Under the pieces are notes generated by a model that was not told the DNA's origin, did no database searches, and worked only from the letters and a program-made list of their open reading frames with translations. Position numbers and translations under genes: made by a program. Positions 3,035-19,618 of a DNA stretch of 64,000 nt are shown one piece after another. The DNA is from Deltaproteobacteria bacterium (GTDB lineage Bacteria; Desulfobacterota; DSM-4660; Desulfatiglandales; HGW-15): assembly GCA_019310485.1 (NCBI GenBank), contig JAFDEF010000033.1, positions 17,174-81,173 on the forward strand. The letters are read 5' to 3'. Positions within the stretch are counted from its first letter, which is position 1, and each line of letters starts with the position of its first letter.

Positions 3035-4357
3035 CTACTTCATTCCTTTTGCCGGTATTCTTAAATCCGAATTACTGGGCGGAATAACAGCAGGCCCCTT
3101 TGCCGGCGGCAAGTTTTTGAACTGGGGACAAAAGTCCGGCCCGTAACGGTGGGCCCTGAAGACCATCCCGCCCGTAAAAGTCTGGCCGTCACGAGGATTG
3201 ATGTATTCCCATACAGTCTCCTTTGCCGGTGTTACCTCAAAAAACCTGCCGTTAGCTCCTGCGCAGATGAGGGTATTGCCATTCGGCAAACGCTCGGCGC
3301 CGCTTATGAAGCTTGAAAAATGCCTTCGTGTAATTTTGGGCCCGGGGCCCCTACTGGAGGCTGATTCCCAGACTACCTTACCTGTCTTGGGATCTACCTC
3401 TACTGCCCTCGATGTATCCACGTACATACCATTGTCATAACACAAAAAGTGGCCGGCGCCCGGAAGGCCCGGGGCTATTTCATTACAATCATGCGGGCCG
3501 CCCATTGTCTTATTCTTGGTGCCTAGCTGCATGGGACCCGTCCTCCTGAATTCAAGAGCCCCGGTCTTTTTGTCCAGGTATGCAACATTTCCCCATCTCC
3601 AGATAATATTCTTTGTCTTTTTGTCAATGACCATCATGGAATCCAGGTGCCGGAAATCGGTCAAGATATTGCCGTTTTCCATAACATCTATGTTATTACA
3701 ATGATCCCATTCGCTCCTGGGGTGGATCGGGCCAATGATGTCTATATCCGTATCAAAGTGCTTGTAGGCGTGCCATTCCCACACGGTCTTACCCTGCGGT
3801 GTAACCTCCCTGAAATAGGTGCTGAACATGCTGCCGTCTTTGAACTCGGTGCCCTTCTGGCCGCCCCTGACTTTCTTCTGGATATCCTTGGGCACTTTTT
3901 CCCAGGCGACGTAAATATAGTCGCCATTCGGCAACTTGTCGAAGTCATGGTTGGAATTCAGGTCCTTATACTGGAACACGATGTTTCCGTCCCAGTCCAG
4001 TTCAAACAGATATCCGGCTTCACCGCCCATGTGATACTTACCGACTCCGGGCCTGCCCGGTGCAGCCTCCTTCGTTACGCCGAGCATAAGGTAATGCCCG
4101 TTCGGCAGAAGCACCCCGTGATCCCCTGGAGGAAACGGCAGTTTCCATGTGTGAACCACATTTCCGTTCATGTCTATCAAGAAGGCCTTAGCATCCGTGT
4201 CATAAGGTTTTAATGCCTTTCCCTTTGCATCATTGGGGGCGTAAAGGGTGTAGCCATTGAATGCCTTGTCCGGCTTATACAGGGTTGTGCCTGTCGGAAA
4301 CACGGCAGGCCATGCATAAACCGAGACGGCTACCGCCATCACCATTAAGAATGCCAT
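3035..4357 (-). CDS. arylsulfotransferase (ASST)-like beta-propeller protein (paralog 2)
   Basis: 440-aa ORF with the same motif set as paralog 1 (SNHDFD, WDHCNNID, CYDNGMY, AERLPNGNTLICAG...FEVTP...VWEY). It has a short hydrophobic N-terminus, MAFLMVMAVAVSVYA. The start codon lies inside a 19-bp tandem duplication. Confidence 0.55.
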   Translation of the reverse strand: MAFLMVMAVAVSVYAWPAVFPTGTTLYKPDKAFNGYTLYAPNDAKGKALKPYDTDAKAFLIDMNGNVVHTWKLPFPPGDHGVLLPNGHYLMLGVTKEAAPGRPGVGKYHMGGEAGYLFELDWDGNIVFQYKDLNSNHDFDKLPNGDYIYVAWEKVPKDIQKKVRGGQKGTEFKDGSMFSTYFREVTPQGKTVWEWHAYKHFDTDIDIIGPIHPRSEWDHCNNIDVMENGNILTDFRHLDSMMVIDKKTKNIIWRWGNVAYLDKKTGALEFRRTGPMQLGTKNKTMGGPHDCNEIAPGLPGAGHFLCYDNGMYVDTSRAVEVDPKTGKVVWESASSRGPGPKITRRHFSSFISGAERLPNGNTLICAGANGRFFEVTPAKETVWEYINPRDGQTFTGGMVFRAHRYGPDFCPQFKNLPPAKGPAVIPPSNSDLRIPAKGMK

Positions 4358-11700: not shown

Positions 11701-12918
11701 TTAACTTTCAGCGATTTTACGAATGGCTCCGGCAACCACTTCCATTTCTTCAATTGTATTAAAATACCCCATACTGAGCCGCACCGTTCCATCTGGGTAC
11801 GTTCCGAGCGTTTGATGTGCCAGGGGGGCGCAATGAAGGCCTACCCGCACGAAGATATCGTATTTCTTGTTCAAGATGCCCCCGGCTTCACTTGGGGAAA
11901 GACCATCCTCCAGCCATCCGAGATTGATTGCTCCGCAGCCGCTGGGCAAATGCTCAGTGCCGGTCGGTAGGATAGTTTCAAAGGTCACTGAGACGGTGGC
12001 GGTCTGTTTTTCCGCCTTAAGGGGGCCGTAGATCGTGAGACCCTGAACATCAAATAGGTTTTTCAGAAGCGTGGAGGTGAGCACTTGCTCGTGTTCCCTG
12101 ATTTTGCTTATACCTTGCTGAAGGATAAAATCAACACCCGCACCGAGACCCGCAATGCCCACGTTGTTTTGCGTGCCACTCTCCAGTGCATCCGGTAAGA
12201 AGTCAGGCTGGGTTATCTTTTCTGATATACTGCCTGTCCCTCCCCTTTTAAGAGGCCTCAGGCTTAGGCCCTCGCGGATGTACAACCCTCCTGTTCCCTG
12301 GGGGCCCAGGAGAGCCTTGTGTCCGGTAAAGCCAAGGAAATCTATTCCATCTCTTTCCACATCAATCGGGTAGCATCCAGCAGTTTGCGCTGCATCAACA
12401 AGAAGAGGAACCTCCCGTATTGCTTCTTTCACGGCTCTAATATCCTGGATTGTCCCACAGACATTGGAAGCATGGTTTAAGACCACCAGTGCAGTGTTTT
12501 TCTTAATCAGACGGGGAAGTTCCTCAGTATCCAAGAAACCTTTGTGATCGCATGGGGCTATGCTTAGTGAAACAACACCGCTTTCTTCGAGATACTTTAG
12601 GGGCCGAACCACAGAATTATGCTCCATCGAGGTTATTATCACGTGATCACCCCGTTTCAGAAACCCGTTAAAAACAGTATTGAGGGATTCTGTGACATTC
12701 ATCGTGAAAACAATGCGTTCAGGATTCTTTATGTTAAATAGAGCTGCCAGTTTTTCACGAGTGTTTTGCACTATCCGGGATGCTTCAAGGGACAGGGGAT
12801 GACCTGATCTTCCAGGATTGGCCCCTACCTCCTTCATAAAATGTTCCATGGCTTTGAATACCTGCGGAGGTTTGGGAAAAGAAGTCGCCGCATTATCCAA
12901 GTAGATAAATTTCTTCAT
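11701..12918 (-). CDS. class V aminotransferase / cysteine desulfurase-family PLP enzyme
   Basis: IYLDNAATSFPKP N-terminus, a GHK PLP-lysine motif (FTGHKALLGPQGTGG) and a RLSMGYFNT C-terminus. ATG 12918 is preferred over the track's TTG 12936. Confidence 0.85.
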   Translation of the reverse strand: MKKFIYLDNAATSFPKPPQVFKAMEHFMKEVGANPGRSGHPLSLEASRIVQNTREKLAALFNIKNPERIVFTMNVTESLNTVFNGFLKRGDHVIITSMEHNSVVRPLKYLEESGVVSLSIAPCDHKGFLDTEELPRLIKKNTALVVLNHASNVCGTIQDIRAVKEAIREVPLLVDAAQTAGCYPIDVERDGIDFLGFTGHKALLGPQGTGGLYIREGLSLRPLKRGGTGSISEKITQPDFLPDALESGTQNNVGIAGLGAGVDFILQQGISKIREHEQVLTSTLLKNLFDVQGLTIYGPLKAEKQTATVSVTFETILPTGTEHLPSGCGAINLGWLEDGLSPSEAGGILNKKYDIFVRVGLHCAPLAHQTLGTYPDGTVRLSMGYFNTIEEMEVVAGAIRKIAES

Positions 12919-13141
12919 TTCTCTCCAGGCCGACAAAAGCTTTCACTAATTCTTGAAAATATACTTCTTTTATAGTGTATAGCAAGAAAATCTTTCTCCT
13001 TATATGCTCAAACGGAGAGACAAGGGTAAAATCCTATTTCAAAAAGTTGCACATGATGATAGGTAATACAAGAAGGCGGAGGATTCAAATGACCGACACG
13101 TCTTGCTGCCTAAAAATCAATAACTGGAGAAGTGCTGGATC

Positions 13142-13429
13142 ATGCAAAGCAAAGAGAAAATCATCGACCTGCGTAGCGACACGGTTACCAAACCAACCCC
13201 TGCGATGCGCAAAGCAATGGCTGAGGCTGAAGTCGGAGATGATGTCTACGGGGAGGACCCCAGCATAAACCGGCTCCAGGCCATTGCCGCAGAAATGACG
13301 GGGAAAGAGGCATCCATTTTCGCAACGAGCGGCACACAGAGCAATCTGCTTGCACTGCTGAGCCACTGCGAAAGGGGCGACGAATACATAGCCGGGCAGC
13401 AGGCCCACGCCTACGCGAAGAAGGGCTAG
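13142..13429 (+). pseudogene. ltaE: 5' fragment of a low-specificity L-threonine aldolase gene (truncated)
   Basis: The 95 aa ([20 protein letters not shown]...[15 protein letters not shown]...[12 protein letters not shown]) match only the N-terminal approximately quarter of the ~340-aa threonine aldolase family. The frame ends abruptly at TAG and abuts the 3' end of the convergent dsrE-like gene. Confidence 0.7.
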
Positions 13430-13459
13430 CCAAGCCCTGTGCACGTCTGTAAACAGCCC

Positions 13460-13810
13460 CTAGAAATTGAATACCTTGGCCTCTGCCGCGAGGTCAATAA
13501 GATGAGGGGCGCCGTCCAGCACCATATTTGAAAAAAACTTACTCTCGTCTAACTGGCGAGCCTTTGCACAGGGAATTCAAACACCAATGGGGACATGATT
13601 TTCCACCAGGTAGGGCAGATAATCATTCGGGCAATCACCTGTCCCTGCTTTCAGGGAGAAATTCCTTGTGGAATCAGCCCACAGAACCCCTCCATCAATA
13701 AAAAACAAATTGGTCTTGTGTCCCTTGGAGTGTGCAATCTTTGCAAACTGAAAGCACCTTGTCGCAGCCTCGTTATCATTTTTACTGAGCACAAATAAGA
13801 AGTTAGCCAT
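13460..13810 (-). CDS. DsrE/DsrF-like sulfur-relay family protein, probable selenoprotein (in-frame UGA at 13577-13579)
   Basis: The track ORF 13577..13810 (77 aa) ends at TGA. The same frame stays open for 38 more codons to TAG at 13460-13462. The joined protein reads ...LVENHVPIGV-U-IPCAKARQLDESKFFSNMVLDGAPHLIDLAAEAKVFNF. U-I-P-C sits where this family has a V-C-x-x-C-x-x-x-R motif. A hairpin, CUCGCC-AGUUA-G(A)CGAG, lies 17-33 nt after the UGA (13544-13560). Confidence 0.7.
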
Positions 13811-13848
13811 AATGAACCTCCTTTCATATTCTCATGCACTTTGGCGTT

Positions 13849-15600
13849 CTACCCTGTTCCTGCGAGCCTGCCTTCCTTGGCAAGTCGTAATTCCAGGTCG
13901 CATTGAAGACACCTTTTCGCCTCGCGGAGGGCTTCTTCATCTCCCAAACCAAGGTTTACCTCGCTAAAACCGGAATGCCTTTCAGAAATGGGGAGAGTGA
14001 GCATCCTTACTCTTTTAAGATCAGCAAACCCTGTTTCCCTTTTGCCCGTATAAGATTCCGTATCCACTCTTTCCGCTAAGGTCTCATCCAGGGTTCCTTG
14101 CCCACCAAGGGATTTGTCAATTGCTATTGCCGCTTTACGTCCCGTTGCTATAGCCTCTATAATAGAGCTGGGGCCTGTTGCAACATCTCCCCCCGCAAAA
14201 ACGCCCGGGACGCTTGTCTGCATTGTTCCAGGATCAGTCTCAATCAAACCTCCCCCAGACCTTATCTGCTCTTGGCCGGAAATGAAAGACAGATCTGCAG
14301 CTTGGCCTATTGCCAGTATTACCTGATCAGCATTAACCGTCATTTTCTCTTCACCAAAAGCCGGGCAGAAGTTCCCCCCCTCGTCAAAGACAGACGTGCA
14401 TCGGACAAGTTCAACTGCACTTACCCTCCCATTGTCTCCTATGATTCGATGAGGTCCCCAGGAGGTCATAAGCTTTACTCCCTCTTCCAGCGCTTGCTCT
14501 ATCTCCCACGGGCTGGCGGGCATTTCTTCCCTGCTCTCCAGGCATGCCATAGTGACCTCTTTTGCCCCCGTTCTCAAGGCGCTCAAGGCCACGTCCACAG
14601 CCACATTACCACCCCCTACGACAAGCACTCTGTTTTTAAGCCGGACGTTATTCCCGACATTGACATCTGCCAGGAAATCCACTCCCCAAAAGACATCTTC
14701 CAGATCAGTCCCTTCGAGATCTATTTTTCTGCTTTTCTGAAGCCCGGTCGCTACAAAAATAGCTTGGAATCCCTCTGCCTTTAACTGGTCAAGGGTAAAA
14801 TCAACTCCAAGCCTTTTCTCATTTTCAAGCCTGATCCCAATGCTCAGCACCTGGTTTATTTCTTTCTCCAAGACCTCCTCCGGCAACCTATAATAAGGAA
14901 TGCCATAACGCATCATACCCCCAGCCTTGGCTCTAGCCTCAAATACAGTGACATCATGCCCCATTTTCCTGAGATAAAAAGCAGCTGTTAATCCTGCCGG
15001 TCCAGCACCAATAACAGCGATCTTATGGCCTGTACTTTCTTTAACCTTTGAAGCTCCTTTGAACGCTCCGTCTGCTTTATCCGCTGCATACCTCTTGAGA
15101 GCGCAAATGGCAATCGGCTCATTAACTTCGCCTCTTCTACACTTACTTTCGCATGGGTGCATGCACACCCGTCCCAAGATACCCGGAAATGGAACTTTCT
15201 CGAGAATAAGTTTGCAGGCTTCCTCAGGTTTCTCTTGGGCAATTAGCCGGAGGTACCCCGGCACATCGATACCGGCAGGGCAGGCAGCAGTGCACGGCGG
15301 GACCTCCTCAGGCATAAAGTCTTTAGGTGTCATAGAGCGCAGAGGTCGCACAATGTCCAGGATCGCTATGCCGTTCGGACACACGCTTTCACACCGACCA
15401 CAGGTGGTGCACTGCCATGGAAGTGAGCTATTGGCTATCTCTTCAATTAGATCAAGCTCCACAAATCTTATGATTCTCCTGATATTGAAGTCATCCACAC
15501 CTGTAATAGGGCAACCAGAACTGCAGCATCCGCACTGTTCGCAAGTCCTGAACATGGTTACATCACTAAATTTCTCTGCTAAAGCCGTATTCGAATCCAT
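13849..15600 (-). CDS. fusion of a 2x[4Fe-4S] (HdrC-like) domain with a GltD/NfnB-like NAD(P)H-dependent FAD oxidoreductase
   Basis: [12 protein letters not shown] and [12 protein letters not shown] motifs come first. They are followed by a glutamate-synthase-small-subunit-like Fe-S region ([17 protein letters not shown]...[12 protein letters not shown]) and two Rossmann motifs ([23 protein letters not shown]). ATG 15600 has AAGAGG 9 nt upstream and is preferred over the track's TTG 15621. Confidence 0.85.
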
Positions 15601-15604
15601 CTCA

Positions 15605-17674
15605 TCAAACCTCTTTTGCAAGATGAAGCTCTCTTACCATTTCCCTCATCGTGTTTGCGAACTTTGGCCCGTCCGCCGCTGAGCACCAAATATTCCATAG
15701 CTTATCAGGGTCAAATCCTTTCTTCGCCAGTATCTTCTTGGCCCTATTTACCCTTTTTTCCGCAGCATAATTCCCTGAAATGTAGTGACATGTTGGGAAT
15801 TCACAGCCTGCCACAAGTACGCCAGCAGCCCCTAAGTCAAAAGCCCTTTGAATGAACTTAATTGAAACCCTCGCCGAGCACATCACCCGTATTAGTCTCG
15901 CATTGGGCGGGTACTGAAGCCTGCTCACTCCTGCCATGTCAACGCCGCCAAGTGCGCACCAGTGACAGACAAAGGCAATTATTTTGTCTGCAGGGTTCTC
16001 CTCCAAAGCAGCTTCTACCTGAGCCAAAACCTGGTCGTCGGAATAGTGAACGATGCTAATGCATTCTTTAGGGCAATCTGCTGCACAAAGACCGCAACCT
16101 TTACAAAGCGCTTTTACCACCTGGGGTTCTTTGTTCTCATTAACACGTATGGCACCATACGGACATCTCTTCCAGCAAAGACCGCAACTATTACAGTTCG
16201 CAAGATCAATATCAGCCACGATCCCCTCTGCCTCAATATACCCATTGTTCATTGGAATGGAGACCCTCATAGCCGCCCCCATACCTTCTTCGATGGTCTC
16301 TTTCAGGGTTTTTGGATTCTTCGCACACCCACAAAGGGCTATGCCGTCTGCCGGAAAATCTAGGGGGCCCAGTTTGATATGACGTTCTTGAAAGAACCCC
16401 TCCGCGTTGCTCGAAACCTTAAGATGCCCTTTGATCTTTTCAATGGTCTCATCCCCTTCAAAACCAGCGGTAAGAACAAGAAGATCAGCTGATAGAAGGA
16501 AAGCCCTTCCACTTAGTATGTCGTATACGTTTATCACCAGGTTCTCATTGTCTTTGGTAACTTCTGGATACCTGTCGTCCGGAAATCTCAAGAACTTCAC
16601 CCCAGCGGCTTTAGCCGCGTCTATGTGAAAATGCTCTTCCTTAACCATGCTTAGGTCTCTGTAGAGAATATATACCTTCGCTTCTTTATTGACCCTTTTG
16701 ATTGCAAGCGCATTCTTTATCGACACGTGGCAGCCAATATTGCAGCAACCACGGGTTTCATTTTTTGACCCGACACAATTAACCATGACCACGTTCTTGA
16801 CATCTCCGAGCTGATTATTCTTAAGAATCCCTTCCAGCTCAAGCTGTGTAACTACGCGAGAATCGCTCCCATAAAAGAACTTTCCCTCTAAATTCAACTC
16901 TCTCATTCCAGTAGCGACAATAACCGTTGACACATCAAAATTGTTTCTTGTTCCATTAGATTTAATTGTTACGCTGTAATTGCCGATGTAGCCGTCCACA
17001 TTTTCAATCTCCGCGTTAGTGTAAACCACTACATTAGGGTGAGTCTCAACAAGCTTTGCCTGCCCCCTGACAATCTCTTCAGCGCTTAGTAATTCCTTGT
17101 CGCTAGAAACTGTCGAGATTAGGTTTAGTAGCCCTCCTAGCTGCGGCCTTTTCTCAACGAGGACTGCTTTGAAACCTTGGTTAGCAAGGCTGAGGGCGGC
17201 TGTCATACCCGCCATGCCGCCCCCGATGACCATACAGTCTTTTCCAACCGGCAGCCTGATCTCTTCACCTTCCTCAAGCAAGGCAGCTTTGGCTACTCCC
17301 ATCTTGACCAAGTCCTTAGCCTTCTGCGTTGCTATTTCCGGTTCATTCATATGAACCCAGGAAACCTGCTCCCTTATGCTCACGAATTCCAGCAAGTATG
17401 GGTTTAGCCCCGCTTCCTTAACAGTTTGTTTAAACAGAGGTTCATGGGTTCGGGCGGTGCATGATGCAATAACAACTCGATTTAATTTATGCTCCTTAAT
17501 GGACTCCTGCATCGAGCTGAGAGCATCCACGGAACATGACCATTTACCCTCGTCAACGAAAACCACGTTCTTCAGTCCTTTTGCGTAGTTCACAACCTCG
17601 GGTACATTGACCACCCCCGCAATATTTGAACCACAATCGCACACAAATACCCCAATCCGGATTTCTTCAGTCAT
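15605..17674 (-). CDS. HdrA-like FAD/Fe-S flavoprotein fused to a C-terminal MvhD-like domain
   Basis: 689 aa with an HdrA-type N-terminal Cys domain ([14 protein letters not shown]) and an FAD motif ([13 protein letters not shown]). A ferredoxin insert follows ([24 protein letters not shown]). The C-terminus is an MvhD-like module ([18 protein letters not shown]...[10 protein letters not shown]). Confidence 0.85.
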
Positions 17675-17803: not shown

Positions 17804-19150
17804 TTATCTTGGTGAGACAGCTTTCAGGCTTGCGGCAGTCGCCTGAACCACTGACTCAGAGATATCTATCGGGCCAGTTGCTCCACCGCAGACATATATC
17901 CCCTCCACCTCTGTTTCCAATGGAGCGGAGATGGGATCCTTTTCTTTAAAAAACCCAAGCTTATCCAATTGGATCTTCAGAATCTTGGCTAACCTCTCAT
18001 TCCTGCTGTTTGCGACAAGACCAGTGGAAAGAACAAGAATTTCTACCTCATCGTACCTAAGCTCACCGCTGTCCAGATCCTCATATCTAACTGTCAAGTT
18101 CTTTGTCTCAGGATCTTCAAAGACGTCATAGGGCCTAGCTCTTACGTATTTGACACCGTTTTCCCTGGCCTTCTCATAGAAAGCCCAGAAGCCCTTGCCA
18201 TAGGCCTTTAGATCATTGTAGTATACCGTGGTATCCACTTGAGGGTCATGTTCCTTTGTTATGATGCTCTGTTTGGTTGCGACCATACAGCATACTTTTG
18301 AACAATAAGGAACTCCTCCCTCCAACCCTCGACCCGCACATTGTATCCATGCAATTCTATGAGCATGTTTACGGTCAGAAGGCCTTATAATCTGTCCTCC
18401 TGTCGGGCCTCCTGCATTCATGAGTCTCTCAAACTGAGTATATGTAACAACATTATCATAGAGATCATAACCATATAGGCCGCGTGGCGGCTTAGCATCT
18501 GCAATACCCGTTGCGATTACAATGCTTCTTACAGCGATATTTATGTTCTTGTTGGCCTGCCAGAGCCGCACTGCATCTTTGCCCTCTTTTCGGCATGCGG
18601 CAACACAGAGCGCAATAGGACATTCACGGCACTGACTGCAGTCGACAACACACCCACCTACACATGCTCCTTTATCGCGCATCCTCCCATAACGGCAGTC
18701 GGGATCTATCACCATTACGTTGGGTACCGCTTGAGGAAAGGGAATTGAAATCAGTTTTCGAACCCCACCTATCTTACCGTCCAGCTCGTCAGGGACAGTA
18801 ACTGGGCACGCTTCCAGGCATGCACCACATCCGGTACATTTCTCTTCGTCAATAAATCTGGCTTTTTTTATGAGTCTGACACTGAAACCGCCGTCAGCCT
18901 TTTTTACCTTTCTGACCTCTGTGTTCGTTAGAATATCTATATTGGGGTGATTGTCGACCTCATACATCTGAGGAGCCTCAATACAGATAGAACAGTCATT
19001 CGTCGGAAAGGTCTTGTCCAGCCTTGCCATCATGCCACCTATGCTTGGCGTGTCATCCACAAGGTAAACATGTGTGCCGTATTTGGCAGCATTCAACGCG
19101 CAATTAATTCCCGCAACTCCTGCGCCGATTATAAGTATTGAGTTATCCAT
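17804..19150 (-). CDS. HdrA-like FAD-dependent Fe-S oxidoreductase (second paralog)
   Basis: 448 aa with ILIIGAGVAGINCAL, the HdrA-typical LDKTFPTNDCSICIE, the ferredoxin motif CTGCGACLEACP, and a C-terminal IYVCGGATGP. Confidence 0.8.
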   Translation of the reverse strand: MDNSILIIGAGVAGINCALNAAKYGTHVYLVDDTPSIGGMMARLDKTFPTNDCSICIEAPQMYEVDNHPNIDILTNTEVRKVKKADGGFSVRLIKKARFIDEEKCTGCGACLEACPVTVPDELDGKIGGVRKLISIPFPQAVPNVMVIDPDCRYGRMRDKGACVGGCVVDCSQCRECPIALCVAACRKEGKDAVRLWQANKNINIAVRSIVIATGIADAKPPRGLYGYDLYDNVVTYTQFERLMNAGGPTGGQIIRPSDRKHAHRIAWIQCAGRGLEGGVPYCSKVCCMVATKQSIITKEHDPQVDTTVYYNDLKAYGKGFWAFYEKARENGVKYVRARPYDVFEDPETKNLTVRYEDLDSGELRYDEVEILVLSTGLVANSRNERLAKILKIQLDKLGFFKEKDPISAPLETEVEGIYVCGGATGPIDISESVVQATAASLKAVSPR

Positions 19151-19336
19151 GAACTTACCTCAGAATCTGCAGATCAGAGTATTCACATTTTTCTTTTGAA
19201 TCTACTCACCGCTTTAAGGGAGGAAGAAGCCTTTGTACTGGCACAGAGGCGATAGGCAAAAAGCTCATAACAAGACTTACTTGTAGGACAAAAAATCCAC
19301 TATGCTATCTCGGAAAGGGGACCCAGCTTGATCATC

Positions 19337-19373
19337 TAAAAAGCATCCTTCTCTGTTCTCAGAGATGGATGCT
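19337..19373 (-). terminator. Rho-independent terminator separating the OYE/ferredoxin operon from the Hdr-like operon
   Basis: The minus strand reads AGCATCCATCTCTG-AGAA-CAGAGAAGGATGCT (14-bp stem, 1 mismatch) followed by TTTTT. It lies about 36 nt after the ferredoxin stop at 19409-19411. Confidence 0.75.
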
Positions 19374-19408
19374 CCTGCACCATGCAAAAAATCCGACGAG
19401 GTGTCATC

Positions 19409-19618
19409 TCATATTTCAGTAATAACGACAGCCTTCGACTTGCATACTGCTTCGCACGTTCGGCACCCAAGACAATTCCTTGGTCGCACAGGGTACGCCT
19501 TGGTTGAAAAATCGAAGACATCCACTGGACAATATCTAACACATTCCTCGCATCCATCACATTTGTCCGCGTCAACGTACACGAGGTAAACTTCAAAATC
19601 TATGTATTTTTTTGCCAT
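19409..19618 (-). CDS. 2x[4Fe-4S] ferredoxin
   Basis: 69 aa with CDGCEECVRYCP and CLGCRTCEAVCK motifs. Confidence 0.85.
   Translation of the reverse strand: MAKKYIDFEVYLVYVDADKCDGCEECVRYCPVDVFDFSTKAYPVRPRNCLGCRTCEAVCKSKAVVITEI

Follow-up and report, generated by a model that had tools for sequence, protein, structure and literature searches.

A DsrE-like gene with an in-frame UGA in an uncultured Deltaproteobacteria bacterium is probably a selenoprotein gene of a known family, with a putative SECIS element that appears degraded in this species

Standard gene calling in an uncultured "Deltaproteobacteria bacterium", represented by a metagenome contig from hydrothermal sediments, reports a DsrE-like gene of 77 codons that ends at a TGA. 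This locus raises the question of whether that TGA terminates the protein or encodes selenocysteine (Sec), and whether it still does so in this species. The original prediction held that the frame is read through the UGA to give a selenoprotein with a U-x-x-C motif. In the stretch of DNA analysed here (64,000 nucleotides, hereafter the window, to which all coordinates refer unless another locus is named), the gene starts with an ATG at 13810-13808 on the minus strand and runs for 77 sense codons to a TGA at 13579-13577, and beyond it 38 further sense codons (IPCAKARQLDESKFFSNMVLDGAPHLIDLAAEAKVFNF) follow in frame up to a TAG at 13462-13460; the predicted positions of the ORF, the TGA, the extension and the TAG proved exact to the base. 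An example of the C-terminal peptide encoded beyond UGA78 is FFSNMVLDGAPHLIDLAAEAK. The coding sequence has the following features:

13460-13810, minus strand: predicted DsrE-like selenoprotein coding sequence, 116 codons including UGA78, then TAG (translation; Pfam PF02635; homologs)
13577-13810, minus strand: 77-aa ORF of standard gene calling, a truncated annotation (ORF list)
13577-13579, minus strand: in-frame UGA, proposed Sec codon 78, first residue of U-x-x-C (aligned Cys homologs, Cys78 of 2HY5_A, TGA orthologs)
13568-13570, minus strand: Cys81 codon (TGT), second residue of U-x-x-C, invariant in the homology-based alignments A1 and A2
13817-13821, minus strand: Shine-Dalgarno-like GGAGG, 6 nt 5' of the ATG (direct reading of the sequence)

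A stop-free run of 38 codons is not significant by itself (chance of about 0.16), and the extension downstream of the TGA has neither a start codon nor a ribosome-binding site of its own. The case for recoding rests on homology, and not on frame length or on a hairpin alone. Read-through doubles the DsrE score and makes the domain complete. If Cys is substituted for U, the read-through product matches Pfam DsrE (PF02635) with 69.1 bits over profile positions 3-116 of 116, above the gathering cutoff of 22.7 bits over the whole domain, whereas the 77-aa form scores 35.0 bits and breaks off in mid-domain, at profile position 75 of 116. Of 1385 homologs found by a protein search, the best are of the Cys type, 116 aa long and 72-82% identical over their full length. 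Hundreds of homologs align in frame over the extension, which had been proposed to be the C-terminus of a DsrE-family protein of approximately 115 aa. The UGA had likewise been placed at the first Cys of a V-C-x-x-C-x-x-x-R motif, and when the 116-aa product is aligned with the DsrE/DsrF family, the Cys homologs do align with the U: this column is Cys in all 27 full-length homologs, and in 36 of 36 sequences in alignment A3. The C-terminal extension is among the best-conserved parts of the 27-sequence alignment (e.g., HLIDxAAEAKVFNF). Truncation of the gene at 77 aa by a real stop is contradicted by this conservation.

The alignment profile matches DsrE of A. vinosum (2HY5_A), with column 78 falling on DsrE Cys78; this residue and its TusD equivalent are the persulfide-accepting active-site residues of DsrEFH and TusBCD. 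In the AlphaFold model of an 82%-identical Cys-type homolog, P0001 (pLDDT 94.9; a model of the homolog, not of the window protein), residue 78 is the last of strand 75-78 and adjoins the start of helix 79-84. This model resembles DsrE 2HY5_A, YchN 1JX7 and TusD 2D1P_A with TM scores of 0.77-0.80, and a Sulfolobus DsrE/DsrF-like protein is also among its best structural matches. Based on the homolog model, the read-through product is predicted to have the DsrE/TusD/YchN fold.

The UGA is not peculiar to this genome. We scanned one genome per prokaryotic species (596 Gb) with a TGA-specific DNA pattern, G-[VI]-TGA-x-P-C-A-x-x-R-x-x-D-E, for which approximately 4 chance matches are expected in 596 Gb as calculated from its information content. 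The scan found at least 120 species genomes with a TGA at codon 78 of a DsrE-like gene. All 120 matches listed are DsrE-like frames with the TGA at the same codon, and 118 of them continue for exactly 38 further codons before a stop. Almost all of the matches listed are Desulfobacterota MAGs, and Syntrophobacteraceae, Desulfobacteraceae, Desulfohalobiaceae, Desulfatiglandales and the Olavius Delta 1 symbiont are represented among them. The window protein is 64-87% identical to the 120 Sec-type orthologs listed and is thus nearer to Sec-type orthologs (up to 87%) than to any Cys-type homolog (82%); it also carries the Sec-type signature VPIGV-U-IPCAKARQ. Its nearest Sec-type relative, L023, is 87% identical at the amino acid level and 75% at the nucleotide level, with 20 synonymous and 4 non-synonymous differences in the 38 downstream codons, and 35 synonymous and 11 non-synonymous differences in the 77 upstream codons. 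The extension is at least 90% conserved across species. Since the downstream differences are mostly synonymous, the region 3' of the UGA has been translated over evolutionary time, and by evolutionary identity the gene is a Sec-type ortholog.

The suspected mis-annotation is borne out, as the 77-aa product is on record in JGI, NCBI, ENA and Logan. A length of exactly 77 aa is also found in 113 of the 120 top protein clusters related to this fragment, and truncation of the DsrE-like selenoprotein is systematic in public databases. Several of the 77-aa clusters bear names such as TusD, "predicted peroxiredoxin" or "DsrE family protein".

If the UGA is recoded, a SECIS element should follow it. 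In the 120 orthologs listed, a hairpin core, CGUCAGGUNGACGAG, spans nt 22-36 after the UGA and is essentially nucleotide-invariant, synonymous sites included. For example, Arg85 is CGU in 120 of 120 despite six Arg codons, Gln86 is CAG in 120, Asp88 is GAC in 119 and Glu89 is GAG in 114; the invariant residues Pro80, Cys81, Ala82, Phe92, Asn95 and Asp99 have mixed codons in the same orthologs, and residues 86-87 are free to vary in the Cys-type homologs. The family fold is a stem of 6-8 bp with an A-G-G-U-N loop and a mean energy of -10.2 kcal/mol, 111 of the 120 orthologs listed being at or below -7.5 kcal/mol, and the hairpin of the nearest relative has z = -3.23 against shuffled sequences. 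The published consensus for bacterial SECIS (bSECIS) elements calls for an apical loop of 3-9 nt in which one of the first two nucleotides is G, as a rule with G or U next (PMC13188914, Fig. 2A), and for 16-37 nt from the UGA to the apical loop, an upper stem of 4-16 bp and a minimum free energy of at most -7.5 kcal/mol (PMC13188914). Invariance even at synonymous sites marks the conserved hairpin as the SECIS element of the family, and it fits the published bSECIS model. A search of Rfam found no SECIS family, with nothing but noise either in the whole window at gathering score or in 13400-13700 at a permissive E-value; this null result is uninformative because the bacterial SECIS of the DsrE-like family is not modelled there.

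Several related loci vary on this theme. Two Cys-type genes, L138 and L140 (4232-4276; TGC at codon 78), still have a perfect hairpin, CGUCAGGUUGACGAG; another, L139, has G28A, and in L137 the hairpin is lost. The hairpins in Cys-type members are fossil SECIS elements, and they show that Sec has been exchanged for Cys within the clade. A second Sec-type clade of DsrE-like genes is more distant (L122-L126, from metagenome contigs); it reads MAKFLFVLTRGLED...VPxYx-U-xPCAKARQLDE, and its loop is AGUUG or AGUUA, not AGGUN (CUCGUCAGUUG/AGACGAG), with conserved downstream frames. Among the 120 orthologs listed, a single one, L047 (about 3498-3539, minus strand), has a change at G28, to A; its C-terminus is frameshifted and only 19 codons long, probably reflecting either a pseudogene or an indel introduced by long-read assembly.

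The window's own hairpin departs from this family pattern:

13544-13560, minus strand: SECIS-homologous hairpin CUCGCC-AGUUA-GACGAG, nt 20-36 from the U of the UGA (family core, folding)

The hairpin (CGCCAGUUAGACGAG, with the loop AGUUA at 13550-13554) had been located correctly in the original prediction, and it is the positional homolog of the nucleotide-invariant hairpin of the orthologs. Two of its bases deviate, C24 at 13556 (U24 to C) and U28 at 13552 (G28 to U). Position 24 is U in 120 of the 120 orthologs listed, C24 being unique among more than 125 Sec-type loci, and position 28 is G in 119 of 120. The change of U24 to C turns a U-A pair into a C-A mismatch, leaving a stem of C25-G31, the C24-A32 mismatch and then 4 pairs from G23-C33 to C20-G36, as compared with 6-8 uninterrupted pairs in the family. 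Its minimum free energy of -3.5 kcal/mol (nt 15-44) is the weakest of 121 and no better than that of shuffled sequences (z = -0.13; 77 of 200 shuffles fold at least as well); the single change C24U in silico brings it to -8.6 kcal/mol. When SECIS prediction criteria, a check that the original prediction had proposed, were applied to this hairpin, the outcome was divided. The loop (A-G-U-U-A, with G at position 2 and then U) and the spacing (22 nt, the loop starting at nt 26 from the U of the UGA) agree with the bSECIS consensus, and the energy does not (-3.5 vs. <= -7.5 kcal/mol). An alternative long hairpin (nt 22-60, loop GUAAGU, -8.7 kcal/mol) formally passes the bSECIS filter, and was rejected, with 193 of 200 shuffles folding better.

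The variant hairpin is a property of the species. The identical TGA and hairpin occur in 15 assemblies: the JGI source contig, 4 runs assembled independently from metagenomes of hydrothermal vents and sediments, and 10 other contigs (JGI, ENA, Logan, NCBI MAG). They differ only by A55T and one S94P; within-species diversity is 1-3 SNPs per 561 nt. The species MAG GCA_029932405.1 is among these assemblies. The databases contain no relative between 99% and 86% identity that could date the two changes or show selection for the variant hairpin, and the core is canonical in the closest relative from outside the species (86% identity). Likewise, a metagenome scan for the G28U loop recovered only the distant clade (L122-L126) and no closer relative.

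Several explanations that dispense with selenocysteine can be weighed against these data. It might be argued that the 77-aa ORF is complete, and that the 38 codons are non-coding or form a separate small ORF, since this is what gene callers report; we find this very improbable, because such a product would stop in the middle of the DsrE domain, with the extension matching exactly the remainder, and because the extension is at least 90% conserved with mostly synonymous substitutions and has no start codon or ribosome-binding site of its own. An alternative genetic code, with UGA read as Trp or Gly, has nothing in its favor other than the in-frame TGA itself. TGA is the ordinary stop of 19 of the 57 long ORFs in the window, which excludes a reassigned code, no other gene in the window needs TGA read-through, and homologs have Cys rather than Trp or Gly at this position, so that this explanation has practically no probability. 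The TGA might instead have arisen through an error of sequencing or assembly, or through recent point mutation of TGC or TGT in a Cys-type gene, i.e., a fresh nonsense mutant, as the existence of Cys-type homologs at 82% identity would allow (L138 and L140 even keep the hairpin). The same allele in 15 assemblies rules out an error, and the protein is nearer to the Sec type (87%) than to the Cys type (82%) and shares the Sec-type signature; a mutated Cys-type gene is therefore highly unlikely.

A more serious alternative is that the gene is a selenoprotein gene in decay, in which the SECIS was recently crippled by the changes of U24 to C and G28 to U, the UGA now mostly terminates translation to give a 77-aa product without an active site, and the downstream frame has simply not yet decayed. 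The weak hairpin, well short of the -7.5 kcal/mol criterion, speaks for it, as do the near-invariance of both changed positions in the other orthologs listed (at position 28, but for L047), the frameshifted 3' end of L047, which carries G28A, and a gene remnant immediately 3' of the DsrE-like gene; within-species diversity is too low to show relaxed selection. Against decay, the 38 downstream codons have acquired neither a stop nor a frameshift, V87L is the sole residue foreign to the family, and the lone downstream polymorphism, S94P, leads to a family-typical residue. In addition, the AGUUA loop is in use in another Sec-type clade with conserved downstream ORFs, one C-A mismatch may be tolerated, and the same allele persists in assemblies from different samples. 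On balance, we regard decay as unlikely.

The interpretation of the gene as a selenoprotein gene is therefore supported, and we consider it probable that it encodes a member of the known "DsrE-like, UxxC" selenoprotein family. The related question of whether the window UGA is still decoded receives mixed evidence. The AGUUR loop shared with the second Sec-type clade and the lack of any disabling change in the downstream frame argue for continued decoding; the hairpin energy, the unique C24 and the broken 3' end of L047 argue against it, as does the essential loop G of E. coli fdhF, where mutation of G23 abolishes read-through (PMC8659212). Judging from the sequence, Sec is likely still inserted in this species, perhaps inefficiently, despite the C-A mismatch and a GUU instead of a GGU loop.

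In the mechanism that we propose, a ribosome would reach UGA codon 78 and SelB with Sec-tRNA(Sec) would bind the hairpin starting 16 nt downstream, so that Sec is inserted and translation goes on for 38 codons to yield a 116-aa protein of the DsrE/TusD/YchN fold. Sec78 would be located at the end of a beta-strand and the N-terminus of a helix, in the position of the persulfide-carrying Cys78 of DsrE and its counterpart in TusD, and Cys81, one helical turn away, would resolve the Se-S intermediate. The chemistry of such an active site, inferred here from the fold and the motif, could be a sulfur (or selenium) relay or a thiol-disulfide-type redox reaction. Neither tRNA-Sec (two tRNA-Ser genes were the only tRNA-Ser or tRNA-Sec genes) nor sel genes were found in the 64-kb window, and the 10 kb past its right end contain only housekeeping genes; the protein encoded at its left end has no database record. 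No second selenoprotein gene was found when all TGA-joined frames and intergenic gaps of the 64-kb window were inspected. The TGA-joined candidates turned out to be adjacent independent genes (a histidine kinase and a response regulator; IorA) or non-coding.

The gene neighborhood had been singled out as an operon context of interest, and comprises the following:

13849-15621, minus strand: GltD/YgfK-like NAD(P)-binding FeS flavoprotein, upstream, 38 nt away (Pfam Pyr_redox_2, Fer4_20, Fer4_8)
15605-17674, minus strand: HdrA2-like flavoprotein fused to an MvhD/VhuD domain (Pfam FlpD, Pyr_redox_2; NCBIfam HdrA2, 632 bits, below cutoff)
17804-19150, minus strand: second HdrA2-like protein, matching the N-terminal part of HdrA2 (profile matches)
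11701-12936, minus strand: class-V aminotransferase of the TIGR01977 (EF2568/SclA) family, downstream (459 bits vs. a cutoff of 377)
13142-13429, plus strand: remnant (95 aa) of the N-terminus of a threonine-aldolase-type PLP lyase, separating the aminotransferase from the DsrE-like gene (match limited to positions 1-85 of 288 in Pfam Beta_elim_lyase)

The GltD/YgfK-like protein scores 487 bits against NCBIfam PRK12771 (cutoff 516). The two HdrA2-like genes resemble a split and duplicated HdrA2, one covering model positions 140-557 and the other 313-769 plus MvhD, and both carry Cys at positions that are Sec in some HdrA and MvhD proteins of Desulfobacterota. Upstream of them is a 69-aa ORF for a 2x[4Fe-4S] ferredoxin (19409-19618, minus strand), at which the public gene call is a 73-aa ORF in another frame (19336-19557) without a domain match. 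TIGR01977 is the family of the Enterococcus selenocysteine lyase SclA (selenocysteine lyase/cysteine desulfurase); the aminotransferase reaches 337 bits with the SclA exception model, below the 525 cutoff, and, as the one neighbor with a link to selenium, is a possible selenium or sulfur donor beside the selenoprotein gene. The threonine-aldolase-type remnant is convergent with the DsrE-like gene and occurs in all strain-level contigs, and it looks like a fragment left by deletion or rearrangement.

This neighborhood is constant within the species. However, none of the other 125 Sec-type loci has the Hdr-like, GltD-like and desulfurase neighbors close by, and among the 120 listed any one neighboring gene cluster occurs at 9 loci at most. 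Therefore, the "operon" holds for this species and is not a trait of the family. Partners that do recur at other Sec-type loci are MinD/CbiA-type FeS ATPases, NifX-like and NifU-like proteins and DsrC, as well as an MBL-fold protein and a CoA-disulfide-reductase-rhodanese fusion, and such partners are consistent with a general role in sulfur trafficking, whether persulfide- or FeS-related. For this species in particular, one could imagine that the Sec-containing DsrE-like carrier was recruited into a selenium/sulfur-trafficking redox module together with the ferredoxin, the two HdrA2-like proteins (one MvhD-fused), the GltD/YgfK-like protein and the SclA-family enzyme, in which an Hdr-type, possibly electron-bifurcating complex would reduce a persulfide or selenopersulfide on Sec78, with the non-consensus SECIS being functional. 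We consider such a module distinctly doubtful; if it were real, a working non-consensus SECIS would widen the known tolerance of SelB.

Taken together, these results do not overturn current understanding, and their significance lies in annotation and in the evolution of the SECIS element. Hundreds of such genes are deposited as 77-aa "DsrE family" fragments without the active site, and metabolic reconstructions of sulfate-reducing and syntrophic Desulfobacterota consequently lack a selenium-dependent sulfur carrier. With this locus the family gains a well-populated clade that exchanges Sec and Cys and in whose Cys-type members fossil SECIS hairpins survive, and the window copy provides a natural test of the amount of decay that a bacterial SECIS can undergo before its selenoprotein gene disappears.

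As the original prediction had noted, DsrE-like selenoproteins are documented in published surveys. A "DsrE-like protein, Pfam02635, UXXC" selenoprotein family was described in the Sargasso Sea survey (Zhang, Fomenko and Gladyshev, 2005; PMC1088965), followed by a DsrE-like selenoprotein in Desulfovibrio vulgaris (Zhang et al., 2006; PMC1794560) and DsrE-like selenoproteins in the Olavius Delta 1 symbiont (Zhang and Gladyshev, 2007; PMC1976440), and a 2026 review lists the DsrE-like family and describes the function of such families as uncharacterised (PMC13188914). The window gene thus belongs to a family catalogued since 2005, and it is ordinary for its phylum. It shares with this family the Pfam assignment, the U-x-x-C motif, the Deltaproteobacteria/Desulfobacterota range and a hairpin that comes after the UGA and has G in its small loop, and one of the 120 orthologous loci listed (L075, 84% identical) belongs to the Olavius Delta 1 symbiont itself. 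What differs is the hairpin of the window, with two species-specific substitutions and an energy short of the bSECIS threshold, and the degraded SECIS in this species is the sole unusual feature of the gene.

Compared with DsrE of the A. vinosum DsrEFH complex (2HY5) and TusD of E. coli TusBCD (2D1P), the protein has the same predicted fold (TM 0.77 for the homolog model), and its Sec/Cys78 column falls on Cys78 of DsrE. However, sequence identity to DsrE/TusD is only approximately 20%, and the window protein has an additional Cys81, which creates the UxxC motif. The stand-alone 116-aa form is more alike YchN (1JX7, TM 0.80) than DsrE/TusD. The read-through product scores 20.4 bits with the NCBIfam TusD equivalog TIGR03012 (cutoff 89), and no second DsrE/DsrH-domain gene that could encode a DsrF/DsrH or TusC/TusB partner is present among its neighbors; a role as a DsrEFH or TusBCD subunit is ruled out on these two grounds.

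The SECIS of E. coli fdhF is likewise a hairpin of the coding sequence that closely follows the UGA. Its C20-A21-G22-G23-U24-C25-U26-G27, with an exposed G-U in a small loop, is similar to the family consensus C-A-G-G-U-N-G, whereas the family loop is one nucleotide shorter, lies approximately 4 nt further from the UGA and has no obvious bulged U. The window hairpin differs further from fdhF in its A-G-U-U-A loop and in the C-A mismatch two pairs below that loop.
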